64,000 nt of DNA from Octopus vulgaris (Eukaryota), in NCBI GenBank assembly GCA_951406725.2, contig OX597833.1:21080001-21144000 (forward strand), given 5' to 3'. Of the stretch, positions 1-59,493 are shown one piece after another. The notes beneath the pieces are model-generated. The model did no database searches and was not told the origin of the DNA. It worked only from the letters and a program-made list of their open reading frames with translations. The stretch's first letter is position 1, and each line of letters opens with the position of its first letter. The translations under genes and the position numbers were made by a program.

Positions 1-185
1 CTTGACTGCTAAATCTACAGGTTTTTTCATTCTCTCTCTGTTTCTTTCTCTTATTCCTTTCTGTTGAAGAGCGTAGACTCGATACGTAAAAGAGTTTTTC
101 ATTTTTCATTGTCCTGTGCGTCGAACTAATACACCTGTTTGTTGTTCATACACCTGTTTTCGTCTTTTGTTTTTCTATAAATTTC
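1..185 (+). mobile_element. 3' end of Penelope pLTR-like non-autonomous repeat with decayed minimal hammerhead (57-92)
   Basis: CTTT-CTGTTGA-A-GAG..CTC-GATACGT-A-AAAG. The downstream tail (aactaatacacctgtttgttgtt..cgtcttttg) recurs at 17318-17396 (+) and 18275-18363 (-). Ends in (CT)n/(TA)n. Confidence 0.55.
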
Positions 186-737
186 CTCTCTCTCTCATCC
201 TCTCTCCCTCCATTTCTCTCTCTCTCTCCTCTCTCTCTCTCTCTCTATATATATATATATATATATATATATATATATATATATATATATATATAGCAGA
301 AATACCCGACGTTGCTCGCGATTTGTATATATGGTACAAGTTAAGTTGAAACGTGTGATATGGAGAAGTGTACAATTGACGACAAAGCATTTGTGGAGTA
401 AATGAAGGGCTCGTTCGATTAAGTGACATGTCTTGCGTCTGTTTGGAAGATTCCAGGCCCTAACCTTGTCGTGGAAAAGTGAATGGAGGATATGTGATTC
501 TTGAACGCACCAAAAAGCTGTCAGTGGATATGATTTCTTTTGCGGCTGTCGGCGCTGCCGCTACAAAGCTGAAAAATCATGAGATATAGGAACTTCATCT
601 ATGCGATAAATTAAGCCTGAGGGCGCGCTCAACAGTACCACATGAGAGAAATCTACATGAAAGATATGACGTGGTAAGGCGGGGGATTGACAAAGAAGCG
701 CTTGAAAACAACACAGTCTTGCGATATTTCGGTTTGG

Positions 738-1402
738 AATCAATAGTCGTGGCTCAATGATGCACTGCTTCGCGTAAACAGCATGTGACCATTGTGAGGA
801 CAACTCAGCTACCAAACGAAAACAATTCTGCATGCAGCATTGGGGTACGCGAGGTCACATTAAGGAAGGATGAAAGTCAAAGTCGACCTCGGCGGAATTT
901 GAACTCAGAACGTAACGGCAGACGAAATACCGTTAGACATTTCGCCCGGCGTGCTAACGCGTCTGCCAGCTCGCCGCCTTCGATGCATGGAATATTGAAG
1001 TTTCCATTTATCGAGCAACACACACAGTCTCTAACAAGAGTGGTTGGGTCACGTAATGTTGGATTGCTGACGTGGTTGGGGATCAATAATCGTGGCTCAA
1101 CTGTGCACTCCGCGTAAACAGCGTGCGACCACTGTGAGGGTTACTCAGCTCCTGAACGAAAACAATTCTGCATGCAGCATCGGGGTACGCGAGGTCACAT
1201 TAAGGACACGGTCTCTAACAAGAGTGGTTGGGTTACGTAATGTTGGATTGCTGACGTGGTTGGGGATCAATAGTCGTGGCTCAACTGTGCACTCCGCGTA
1301 AACAGCGTGCGACCACTGTGAGGGTTACTCAGCTCCTGAACGAAAACAATTCTGCATGCAGCGACCGGGGACGCATGGTCACATTAAGGACATGGTCTCT
1401 AA
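738..1402. repeat. About 183-bp tandem repeat (one partial plus two full units)
   Basis: gtctctaac restarts at about 1028, 1211 and 1395. The block gaaaacaattctgcatgcagc..gtcacattaagga occurs three times. Confidence 0.85.
863..980 (-). mobile_element. Meta-type tRNA-SINE, 5' fragment
   Basis: Reverse complement of ggcggcgagctggcaga..gttctgagttcaaattccgccgaggtcgactttg..tttcatcctt. Confidence 0.85.
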
Positions 1403-2126
1403 CTAACGTCGTTGGGTCTTAGACACAATAAATTAGTAGGTTAATGTACATGTGATATTTTAGTTTGTAATCAATAGCTGAAGAATATTTGCATGGACTT
1501 TGTCTATGCTTAGACGGAAGACTTTGATACTGAAGCTAAAAGAAAATAGTTGAATAGTTGCTCAGGATTTAATATATTTTAGCATAATTTTCATAATAAA
1601 CAAAGTGCATTCCAAACGGTTTTTATTCCAACAAATTTCTACCTATGGTACTACGGGTACAGGCAATTATTGCTACCAATTAGACAAGGCAGTTTGAAGT
1701 CTACATCAGTTCTTCCATTTAATACAACCTACATATATTGTTTCAGTAGTTGAATTTGACAGTTTGAACAGAAGCAATGTGTGGACCATGCGAGTAGTCG
1801 TACGTATCCCAGGAAAGAGGGTATTCTGCCCCAAGAGGCCCCATTACTCATTATGTGAAAATTTTCAAGAGTCTAAAACCATCTCTGGAACGTAAGGAAT
1901 GCATGTTCCCAACTTGGAGAAAATCAGTTGCGAACTTCAGAAGTTCTGCGGATTTACACACACACACACACACACACACACACACACACACACACACACA
2001 CACACACTCCTCAGTTTTATACATATAGATATACATGTATGTATTTATGTATGTGAGTGTGTGTGTAGTAGTAGTAGTAATAGTAGTAGTAGTAGTAGTA
2101 GTAGTAGTAGTAGTAGTAGTAGTCCA

Positions 2127-2276
2127 TTGAAGCTGAAATGACTTCACAAATTATTACTCAGAGTTTCACGTAAACGATCATCAAAATGTTGCGAGTTATT
2201 AGAACAACAGTCACGACTGTCTGATGATCAGTTACGTGAAACTGTGTAAGAGTGTGTCAAGTCTTTTCAGCTTCAA
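2127..2276. ncRNA. Imperfect palindrome with two opposite-polarity hammerhead-like motifs
   Basis: Plus 2221-2248: CTGATGA-TCAGTTACGT-GAAA-CTGTG-TA. Minus 2155-2184: TTGATGA-TCGTTTACGT-GAAA-CTCTGAG-TA. Outer arms ttgaagctgaaa / tttcagcttcaa. Confidence 0.6.
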
Positions 2277-3119
2277 CAAAATAATATTTTATTCTATTTT
2301 TGGTATTCCAGTAAAGTTGTTCTCCACCTTTTTGCACATGTGTGCTCACATTCGTTTTACATACATACATGGATGCATGCATGCATGCATACACACATAC
2401 ATACATACATACATACATACATACATACATACATACATACATACAGACATAATATATATATAAAATAAATATATATATATATATATATATATATATATAT
2501 ATATATATATATATATATATATATATATATATATATATATATATATATATATATATAATATATCTAATATAATATAATATAATACAACATATATATAGAA
2601 TATATATATATATAATGTAGTAATCTATCTGTCTATTTATCTATAAATATATAAAATACGTTTATACGCTCTTGACACACAGAAAAAAACAGTAAGGAGA
2701 GAAAAAAAATGCACACAATCAACATATATATATATATATATATATATGCATACATACATATATATACATATATGTACATATATATACACATATACATATA
2801 AATAGATAATTAGATATATAGAGATAGATAGACAGACAGACAGATAGATAGATAGATAGATAGATAGATAGATAGATAGATGGATAAGTATATGAGAGAG
2901 TAAAGAGAGAATGAGAGAGAGAGGTGGGGGAGAGAGAGACTGACCGACAGGCAGACAGACTGACAGACACAGGGAAACACATGGGCAATAACCGATAAAG
3001 GGTTAATGCAGACAGCAGATGATTTGTAAGTGAATTAGTTCTATTTTCAGGTTAGTGATTGTTGTTATATAATGATGGGGTTTGTCTGAAGAAATCATCG
3101 ATGATTGCTCATCGCATTT

Positions 3120-57262: not shown

Positions 57263-58010
57263 AAAAATGAATACAAAGGTAGAGAGGGAGAGAGATAGAG
57301 AGAGAGAGAGAGAGAAGAGAGAGAGAAGAGAGAGAAAGAGTAAGAGAGAACGAGAGAAAGAAAGAGCAAGAGAGCGAAAGAGAGTGAGAGGGAGAGGAGT
57401 AATTACATCATGGCAAAGTTAAATTCGTGTTTCATCGATTCCTTGAGGTATGACAGTTTCTGCTGCATCACTGCGACCCGGTCGTCACCGATAGAATTCC
57501 CCAGCATCTGTTTGACGCTTAGTTAATGGCGAATTCCTATAGGCTTCGGTAGGTTTTTCGTTTCTGTCTTATTGAAGTCACAGAAATATGTGTTTGATGC
57601 ATGCATGCTGTCTTGACCTCGTGACATAAGGTTACCATTAGTCACATTGTGTTCCGTTCTTTTGTGTCTATCACCAATGTTCCATATTCTTTTTTTTGCT
57701 CTTATGTTTCCTTTCTCCCCTTTTTTTTATTTCTTCCCGCCTTCATTTGTTAAAGTTGCTGGCTTTCAGTTCAAGCATAACCCGATCGTTACGTAAGCAC
57801 AAACACACACACACACACACACACACACACACACACACACACACACACACACACACACGCACACACAAGATATTCTGGTTGCATTCTTCATTTGATAGAA
57901 TCTATAGAAATTTGGTTCTTGAATGCTAATATAAAGAATAATGTCGATATATTCTTCACACCTATACTTATCTGTCTGTCTGTATATATATATATATATA
58001 TATATATATA

Positions 58011-58415
58011 CTCTTTTACTCTTTTACTTGTTTCAGTCATTTGACTGCGGCCTTGCTGGAGCACCGCCTTTAGTCGAGCAACTCGACCCCGGGACTTATT
58101 CTTTTGTAAGCCCAGTACTTATTCTATCGGTCTCTTTTGCCGAACCGCTAAGTGACGGGGACATAAACACACCAGCATCGGTTGTCAAGCAATGCTAGGG
58201 GACAAACACAGACACACAAACACACACACGCATACATATATATACATATATACGACGGGCTTCTTTCAGTTTCCGTCTACCAAATTCACTCACAAGGCTT
58301 TGGTCGGCCCGAGGCTATAGTAGAAGACACTTGCCCAAGGTGCCACGCAGTGGGACTGAACCCGGAACCATGTGGTTGGCAGACAAGCTACTTACCACAC
58401 AGCCACTCCTCCGCC
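58011..58415 (-). mobile_element. CORE-type SINE (OR1-like), full length
   Basis: Nearly identical to 11602-12006. Confidence 0.9.
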
Positions 58416-58444
58416 TATACATATATATATATATGTGTGTGTGT

Positions 58445-58586
58445 AAAGTTATAATTTAGGGTATTTGGAAATAGCAGTCAAAACTTGACTCTAAAACCAC
58501 ATTAAATGAACTGAACATTTTATGTGGATTTAGAGTCAGGTTTTCCAGCGTGGTGGCATCTCTTAGATACCCAAAATTATAATTTT
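58445..58586. other. Long imperfect hairpin
   Basis: aaaacttgactctaaa..ccacat / atgtgg..tttagagtcaggtttt, plus outer ttataattt.gggtat / ataccc.aaattataa. Confidence 0.8.
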
Positions 58587-59399
58587 AATAATAATCATTA
58601 CCTTTGAAGGTTTTTATTCCCATGCTGGCCACCTGACAAGATCGGTATTTAAATAACGATCTTATCCTCATCTAGTTTCAGCTCACGAGCTGTGGCCATG
58701 CTGGGGCACCGCCATTTATATACATATACAAATATATATATATATATATATATATATATATATATATATATATATATATAATATAAATAATATATAAATA
58801 TATGCATATATACATACATATATGTACAAGAGGAATATTCTTTATGTTGTATGTCTCGTTTCTCATTGTGTTCAACGTCACTGATGTCTTGTACCCATAT
58901 ATGCATGTATATATACATATTTATGTAGGTATGTACATATATATATGTATATATGCATACATTTATATATTATTTATATTATTATATGATCGAACGCTAC
59001 GCATCCTTTTCCAAGTATATATATATATATATATACATATACACAAGGCTATGTATATATGTGCATGCTCATACACACACAAAATTTCCAGGATTCAAGA
59101 GAATTAAGTACTTAAATAGTAAAAGCACCAAGGTCAGGTCAGTGATAGCGCTTCCGTGTACAAACAATATTTAAGGACAAATACGTACTCCCTAAAGTAA
59201 ACACGGATTTATATTCCGGTTGTGCGTACATTCACAAATGGCTGACTGAATTCACAACGAATCATTAAGGTCACACATGAGTACACTCATTGCACATATT
59301 GCACCTATTGCACTCACTGCACCTAAAGACTCTAGATCCAAACGAATTGCAGGTTCCGAGTTAGGTGAAGGATAAACAATAACAATAGATTTATTGTGG

Positions 59400-59493
59400 T
59401 TTACTACATCTGTTTCAAACGTGTTTTTTGTATTTATTGATAAATAGAAGTGTTACATCATGCAGGAAAAAAAAAACGTTTTCTTCAGGTGAA
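59400..59493 (-). ncRNA. Type I hammerhead ribozyme (one stem I mismatch)
   Basis: UUCAC-CUGAAGA-AAACGU..ACGUUU-GAAA-CAGAUG-UA-GUAAA. Confidence 0.72.

Follow-up and report, generated by a model that had tools for sequence, protein, structure and literature searches.

Within a window of 64,000 nucleotides of the Octopus vulgaris genome (assembly GCA_951406725.2, contig OX597833.1, positions 21,080,001 to 21,144,000, forward strand), a preliminary description had listed 16 sites resembling type I hammerhead ribozymes and interpreted them as a local swarm of retrozyme-like elements mobilised by Penelope. We consider it highly probable that these are minimal type I hammerheads carried on many independent insertions of Penelope-like elements (PLEs) beside (TA)n runs, including both the 3′ ends of protein-coding PLEs and units lacking an open reading frame (ORF) that PLEs would have copied. 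The anatomy of the elements, their division into families, the fixed 3′ ends at (TA)n, the variable 5′ ends, the inverted pairs and the presence of intact PLE ORFs in the genome are directly observed. The proposed Penelope link stands, as does the retrozyme-like character of three units (those of sites 15517, 31169 and 31998, each site being named by its position in the window), but at least two families (35377 and 17882), and probably a third (57), are 3′ ends of protein-coding PLEs rather than non-autonomous elements. The ORF-less units of 350–535 bp were likely copied by the reverse transcriptase (RT) and endonuclease of Hydra- or Neptune-type PLEs.

The motifs were sought on both strands of the window with a strict type I descriptor (C-Y-G-A-N-G-A, stem II of at least 3 bp, GAAA, a near-palindromic stem III, U-H, and stem I of at least 4 bp). 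It gave six matches, at 15517–15600 and 31169–31220 on the forward strand and at 17882–17916, 31681–31778, 31998–32059 and 35377–35439 on the reverse strand, compared with a mean of 0.007 and a maximum of 1 in 300 local dinucleotide shuffles. Dropping the palindrome rule gave seven matches (adding 29221–29296, forward strand) and a mean of 0.11 per shuffle, again over 300 shuffles. The strict descriptor found nothing in the reversed window and nothing with 11 of 12 decoy cores, the twelfth being discounted because it overlaps the real core. A scored scan allowing up to two core mismatches adds site 20837; scores of 9 or more had no matches in 12 shuffles, and relaxed scores of 7–8 arise in shuffles at 0.17–0.33 per shuffle.

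Fourteen of the 16 listed sites have some support. The core (C-Y-G-A-N-G-A, GAAA, U16.1 and H17) is exact at ten, the exceptions being 57, 2155, 14663, 20837, 22246 and 56111; seven sites combine an exact core with all stems, at three the core is exact but a stem is damaged (2221, 29699 and 59400), and four with mismatches in the core are members of repeat families (57, 2155, 14663 and 20837). Stems I and II with an open stem I are present at seven sites. Sites 22246 and 56111 are without any support: the former has no GAAA within 70 nt, the latter carries G8A and lacks stem I, and neither has a relative in the approximately 1 Mb of collected loci within which relatives of 29699, 31681, 14663, 2155/2221, 22246 and 56111 were sought. 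Runs of (TA)≥5 lie within 350 nt downstream of 12 of the 16 sites, as against 27.5% of random positions (p ~1e-4), which bears out the (TA)n association described earlier; the several unrelated families described there are likewise borne out.

Genome-wide frequency was estimated from 58 stretches of 10 kb (580 kb) taken at round coordinates from 30 contigs of the 2.8 Gb assembly, with no length weighting. These hold 17 strict motifs, or 29 per Mb (95% range 17–47), which extrapolates to 48,000–131,000 in the whole genome; controls on the same 580 kb gave three matches over 25 shuffle rounds and 0–1 for each of seven decoys. The window, at 94 per Mb, is about threefold richer than the sample (Poisson p 0.012, a value that ignores the selection of the window), and the 10 kb on either side of it contain no strict motif. 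With only a threefold excess, empty neighbours totalling 20 kb and 29 motifs per Mb elsewhere, we rejected a local cluster; the window therefore reflects an ordinary background at a high level, and the idea of a swarm forming one system gives way to several origins. The approximately 1 Mb of collected DNA, partly chosen for these families, contains 57 distinct motifs in 26 families. Published counts of ~9,000 for Xenopus, ~5,000 for mussel and up to 120,000 for axolotl were obtained with other descriptors and serve as a rough yardstick only. At five loci (L004, L013, L020, L094 and L112) different hammerhead families adjoin one another inside shared (TA)n runs. This suggests that such runs are targeted repeatedly, and may explain local clusters like that in the window.

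Rfam returned no hammerhead in the window at gathering score and none below it among the 150 matches listed of 464, the weak matches being microsatellite hairpins; standard Rfam annotation overlooks every one of these motifs. This silence, the failure of two listed sites and the appearance of scores of 7–8 in shuffled DNA are what could be said for the motifs being chance matches in AT-rich, repeat-rich DNA. For the strict sites that explanation is refuted by the shuffle and decoy controls, both in the window (6 versus 0.007) and in the 580 kb (17 versus 3 in 25 rounds, decoys 0–1), with no comparable match rate in shuffled sequence, and by the placement of motifs at PLE 3′ ends, as in published elements; we regard its overall probability as negligible.

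The clearest case of such placement is a Hydra-clade element:

35351 to 36362, reverse strand: 5′-truncated Hydra-clade PLE between (TA)n runs, consisting of the last 242 codons (GIY-YIG) and the 3′ untranslated region (UTR)
35377 to 35439, reverse strand: intact hammerhead in the Hydra 3′ UTR, 33 nt from (TA)n, predicted cut after 35383

This element differs from a full-length copy elsewhere in the genome (locus L014) by 2 mismatches in 995 nt, and its ORF fragment corresponds to residues 467–708 of the intact 708-aa ORF of that copy. The predicted cut lies ~250 nt downstream of the GIY-YIG ORF fragment, so the earlier placement of the sites in ORF-less islands does not extend to this one. 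The L014 ORF contains RWK, DKT, a CxCX5C linker, CxxC and CxH, with a C-terminal GIY-YIG domain free of internal cysteines; the element has a single ORF, measures less than 3 kb, is inserted in (TA)n and has a 3′ hammerhead, although its 5′ end may extend past the locus. Copies are ~100% identical over 995 nt in all 40 scored of 1622 candidates, head-to-head pairs are frequent, and the hammerhead was found in 20 of 20 loci. Pfam does not recognise the protein and the clade was assigned from motifs following PMC8557442. On these grounds the 35377 family is identified as the 3′ end of a young protein-coding Hydra-clade PLE.

Hydra-1_Obim of Octopus bimaculoides is included, with its hammerhead, in Craig et al. 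2021 (PMC8557442), and the L014 family is assigned as its sister. Shared with published Hydra PLEs are RWK, DKT, CxCX5C, CxxC, CxH, a length of ~2.5 kb, (TA)n insertion, and a near-3′ hammerhead whose stem III is palindromic with a loop of 1 nt (PMC8557442). By eye, the L014 protein resembles that of Hydra-1_Obim, consistent with a cephalopod source, although the protein and hammerhead sequences differ, and the L014 family, unlike the published entry, is very young and high-copy. The view that hammerheads at this density had not been described in octopus must accordingly yield on the hammerhead itself, which was published with Hydra-1_Obim, while the density is an addition. Elsewhere in the window, 13325–13889 on the forward strand is a decayed fragment of a second Hydra-type PLE, with ~35% identity to the L014 protein. 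One further pair of sites is of interest here:

2127 to 2276, no single strand: head-to-head pair of decayed hammerheads, sites 2155 (reverse) and 2221 (forward)

Relatives of this pair in L094, L140 and L156 (62–65% identity) have an intact core and a stem III of ACUC-A-GAGU, resembling published Hydra hammerheads (PMC8557442). At these three loci the family likewise forms a tight head-to-head pair, its junction a few tens of bases before each hammerhead, and a transcript from either side would therefore bear sense and antisense copies.

The second protein-coding parent is of Neptune type:

17781 to 17992, reverse strand: solo pseudo-long terminal repeat (pLTR) of a Neptune-type PLE
17882 to 17916, reverse strand: minimal hammerhead with U4C, predicted cut after 17886 (GUU)

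Site 17882 is contained in a 205-bp repeat, one 30-mer of which has 909 exact genome matches, and Neptune-type coding sequence is joined directly upstream in 2 of 16 further copies. At C3:11.557–11.563 Mb the order is (TA)n, the 17882 repeat as pLTR, an ORF with RT, linker and GIY-YIG, a long UTR rich in (CA)n, pLTR with hammerhead, and (TA)n. The protein has DKG, a CX2-5CxxC linker and, at the C-terminus, a GIY-YIG domain (its Pfam matches to RVT_1 and GIY-YIG fall below cut-off), and pLTRs flank the element; N-terminal matches number at least 150, many in open frames of 800–1000 codons. We accordingly classify the 17882 family as the 3′ end or pLTR of a protein-coding Neptune-type PLE. With the Neptune clade the octopus elements share DKG, the CX2-5CxxC linker, GIY-YIG with internal cysteines, two-sided pLTRs and (TA)n ends; unlike it, the octopus element, whose assignment comes from motifs, has a multi-kb (CA)n-rich 3′ UTR, and one octopus Neptune-type family has a hammerhead with U at position 6 (U6). 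The 3′ UTR exceeds 2 kb and consists largely of (CA)n/(TACA)n mixtures at L187–L189 (G000:C3:11559700-11562300) and L188, and Neptune-type elements may therefore themselves spread microsatellite DNA.

Different in organisation is a young unit without coding capacity:

15296 to 15884, forward strand: young ORF-less element, a 535-bp unit whose first 54 bp recur head-to-tail after it, ending in (TA)n
15517 to 15600, forward strand: the unit's type I hammerhead, intact, fold z −2.99, predicted cut after C15593 (GUC)

Its head-to-tail joint is present at 15 of 15 loci, representing 12 independent insertions, and as many as about four units follow one another; one array contains six hammerheads and another two. 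Copies (1575 candidates) are 95–100% identical. The longest frames in the tandem are 48 codons (sense) and 87 codons (antisense), no PLE protein match was found within the unit, the GC content is 32% (below the 45% limit given for retrozymes), and the unit's fold is much more stable than those of shuffles (linear z −6.5, circular z −6.9). The 3′ ends lie at unit position 54/589 or near 460–490, followed by (TA)n, one per arm of an inverted pair; the 5′ ends vary. By its DNA anatomy the 15517 unit qualifies as a non-LTR retrozyme. Its two fixed termini match two internal starts of PLE RT seen in vitro (PMC11167929), and this is the main ground on which we infer mobilisation by a PLE.

Two older ORF-less units are similar in plan:

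31141 to 31378, forward strand: 5′-truncated copy of an old unit of ~352 bp, with an intact hammerhead at 31169–31220 and predicted cut after C31212
31890 to 32380, reverse strand: old unit of ~420 bp with terminal redundancy and an intact hammerhead at 31998–32059, predicted cut after 32004

The 31998 family shows a period of 401–431 in 10 of 15 loci; for both families the head-to-tail call is made from such periods, successive intact hammerheads having been demonstrated for the 535-bp unit only. Their longest frames are 56 and 80 codons, with no PLE match in their loci; GC is 45% for the 31169 unit (borderline, from a partial unit) and 32% for the 31998 unit, and both lengths lie within the 150–450 bp described for retrozymes. 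By DNA anatomy these two units are also best classified as non-LTR retrozymes. The covariation anticipated earlier was found in the 31998 family (score 0.190 versus 0.147, reached in none of 500 shuffles), where all six double changes fall in stem II, and failed to appear in the 31169 family, which decays without compensation.

An alternative explanation is that every site is a pLTR remnant of an autonomous PLE and that the apparent retrozymes are tandem or truncated pLTRs derived from a parent insertion and never mobile by themselves. This holds for 35377 and 17882, and probably for 57; Xenopus retrozymes are homologous to pLTRs (bioRxiv 2026.07.22.740005), and the flanks of our collected loci, which extend 1.5 kb each side, are short. 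We nevertheless think it unlikely as a general account, since the 3′ end of the 535-bp unit joins its own 5′ end in the 12 independent insertions with no PLE coding sequence inside, and its many copies are nearly identical. The sole neighbouring Neptune-type fragment, in L094, was tried as a partner of the 535-bp unit and rejected, because it has a separate 3′ end and a (TA)n gap sets the two apart.

Under the mechanism that we favour, in which PLEs copy the ORF-less units, RNA read through a tandem would contain two hammerheads, and these would pair as a dimer by their palindromic stems III, probably with the assistance of a protein. Cutting would free unit-length RNA, possibly circularised; the PLE endonuclease would nick (TA)n, and RT would begin inside the RNA at either of two fixed sites, apart from the ribozyme cut. 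An early RT stop would leave solo 3′ ends, and a run past one unit would produce terminal repeats and tandems. In a search that did not demand a palindrome, 17 of the 26 motif families have a stem III that is palindromic throughout, and computed stem III self-duplexes have energies of −5.5 to −11.8 kcal/mol, with single strands at ~0. Most genomic copies are single and decaying, and the majority are therefore likely to be inactive relics.

Several observations weigh against copying by PLEs or against a central role for cleavage. No sequence link was found between any ORF-less unit and a particular PLE; the one word seen in common, an 11-mer at 15697 matching the end of a Neptune pLTR, is not a place where copies stop. 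Periods of 351–354 in the 31169 family occur in 2 of 14 loci, so its tandems are rare, and with the short flanks this leaves room for the units being long pLTRs that belong to PLEs with an ORF beyond the locus. The covariation of the 31998 family comes from 15 related copies and two pairs, and relatedness can inflate the test; the uncompensated decay of the 31169 family points the same way. Computed single-strand folds mostly mispair the hammerhead core. Neither type of 535-bp element end coincides with the predicted cut at 15593, and in vitro, hammerhead mutants left insertion unaffected and no RNA-seq ends were seen at the cut site (PMC11167929).

Among the public sequencing runs listed as containing the 535-bp unit, none is on record as RNA. 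Contigs from four runs, which we guess to be RNA, span the unit, two of them with a joint going back 535 nt; this joint is uninformative on circles because it is identical to the genomic tandem joint. Runs under six organism codes hold 44–91% of the element's words, and near-identical copies therefore exist beyond this assembly.

The question of cleavage is also posed by the first site of the window:

57 to 92, forward strand: decayed U6 minimal hammerhead in a repeat of ~180–200 bp ending in (TA)n

At one locus (L070), a single example, the end of another Neptune-type ORF (a 3′ fragment) is followed by this repeat, and the family likely represents the 3′ end of such a PLE. With positions 6, 7 and 17 left free, a 34-letter pattern has 13,352 exact genome matches, and its reversed control none. 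In the first 100 matches listed, as scored by eye, U occupies position 6 in 97; among 100 listed, position 7 is U in 43, C in 25, A in 21 and G in 11, and position 17 is A in 73, U in 26 and G in 1. A looser anchor gave U in place of the canonical A at position 6 in 22 of 25 copies of the site-57 family. Positions that the hammerhead leaves free therefore vary while A6 has been replaced throughout; CpG decay may account for part of the C/U spread at position 7. We found no report of an A6U core in the literature covered, outside which lies Lunse et al. 2017 on PLE hammerhead variants; for a naturally occurring A6C variant the cleavage rate is under 0.1 per minute (PMC3088659).

The question that this family poses is what PLE hammerheads are conserved for, cleavage or the binding of a protein: over 13,000 copies either tolerate a core change supposed to be damaging or have a fold that serves a further purpose. 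The fold could, at least in the U6 family, be a structural signal for a PLE protein (binding or priming) and not for cleavage, with circles uninvolved. The near-constant U in this commonest family, the slow A6C variant, the indifference of in vitro insertion to hammerhead mutants (PMC11167929) and element ends lying off the cut site would all fit, whereas the acceptance of any base at position 7 and the single G among 100 at position 17, both in keeping with cleavage rules, and the full catalytic core kept in most other families would not; we give this explanation a minor but appreciable chance. Equally tentative is a more ambitious version of our preferred reading, in which the natural hammerhead set (roughly 50,000–130,000 intact canonical motifs in dozens of families) would be among the densest and most diverse described, a 535-nt retrozyme would now be spreading as a circle moved by Penelope enzymes, and the U6 hammerhead would be functional in a family of over 13,000 copies, probably acting as a dimer with protein assistance.

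The octopus set has close parallels. PLE pLTR hammerheads (Cervera and De la Pena 2014, PMC4209133) have the same short palindromic stem III, an additional base following A9 and a predicted dimer, and each genome has numerous heterogeneous families, mostly in single copies, with inverted pairs close by; that study counted ~2,000 in Schistosoma, 4,000 in coelacanth and 9,000 in Xenopus with a descriptor differing from ours, and in its available text we found neither a cephalopod nor a U6 core, unlike the situation in octopus. Non-LTR retrozymes (PMC7229834; Li et al. bioRxiv 10.64898/2026.07.22.740005) likewise lack ORFs, are low in GC and are arranged head to tail, every unit having a single type I hammerhead, with monomers outnumbering tandems and PLEs in the same genome. 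Mussel units of 350–390 bp are a further resemblance; the young 535-bp unit exceeds the described 150–450 bp, a range that is not a strict criterion. Published retrozymes are known as RNA, whereas the octopus units are known here as DNA. In the Anolis Poseidon system in vitro (Frangieh et al. 2024, PMC11167929) there are, as here, an AT-rich target, two internal RT starts that give a tail, and ends off the ribozyme cut, although Poseidon belongs to a different clade and has been shown biochemically, the octopus case being the more conjectural.

Hammerheads in PLEs, retrozymes and their origin from PLEs, and a Hydra hammerhead from Octopus are already in print, the link between PLEs and retrozymes having been argued before (PMC7229834; bioRxiv 2026.07.22.740005). 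The words "octopus" and "cephalopod" are absent from the available main texts of these two, the preprint naming its four invertebrates in supplements. On hammerheads in cephalopods our literature search found only the 235 Rfam matches of the giant squid genome, and it found no relevant paper on genome-wide Octopus bimaculoides hammerheads or on octopus or mollusc retrozyme circular RNA. The additions are the octopus retrozyme families, the density of the motifs, and the U6 family with its 13,352 exact core matches. The kind of system being known, the value of the octopus set is as test material: near-identical 535-bp retrozymes and intact Hydra- and Neptune-type ORFs occur in one genome, and the mobilising enzyme and the question of a circular template are therefore directly testable.

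The remaining listed sites are as follows:

14663 to 14697, forward strand: decayed minimal hammerhead carrying C3U, with stem II broken, within a pyrimidine-rich repeat; L158 is the one relative found (E 2e-9)
20837 to 20887, reverse strand: decayed hammerhead with U4G and A9C and good stems; dispersed family, 433 candidates, 87–92% identity
29143 to 29441, forward strand: ~300-bp dispersed repeat with a fixed 5′ edge and (TA)n end, containing the hammerhead at 29221–29296 (z −3.30); 3003 candidates
29699 to 29748, reverse strand: exact core with mismatched stems I and III; no relative among collected loci
31681 to 31778, reverse strand: exact core, long stem II and weak stem I; one partial relative, L163
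59400 to 59493, reverse strand: exact core, stems I and III each having a single mismatch; member of an old dispersed family in which inverted partner copies occur, 574 candidates

Site 31681 is the weakest of the complete sites, as its stem I relies on G-U pairs and the motif fails to fold (z 0.21). A connection of site 14663 with the Hydra fragment at 13325–13889 was considered and rejected; a SINE-like insert lies between them, and the relative of 14663 resembles another pLTR.

Other repeats are also present in the window. At 6313–8175 on the reverse strand is a frameshifted non-LTR retrotransposon fragment with RVT_1 (E 1e-26), a zinc-binding region and a (TTC)33 interruption, and similar fragments lie near 42283–42600 and 44574–44924. 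LINE 3′ fragments with zf-RVT domains are located at 27043–27753 and 43452–43922 (forward strand). Positions 51327–51600 form a 274-bp near-perfect inverted repeat whose arms contain (TTAGGG)-like repeats, MITE-like in form and the source of a spurious MIR7533 match, and tandem pairs of 184- and 190-bp units occur at 1022–1418 and 53769–54139, the 190-bp unit being a common SINE-like repeat.

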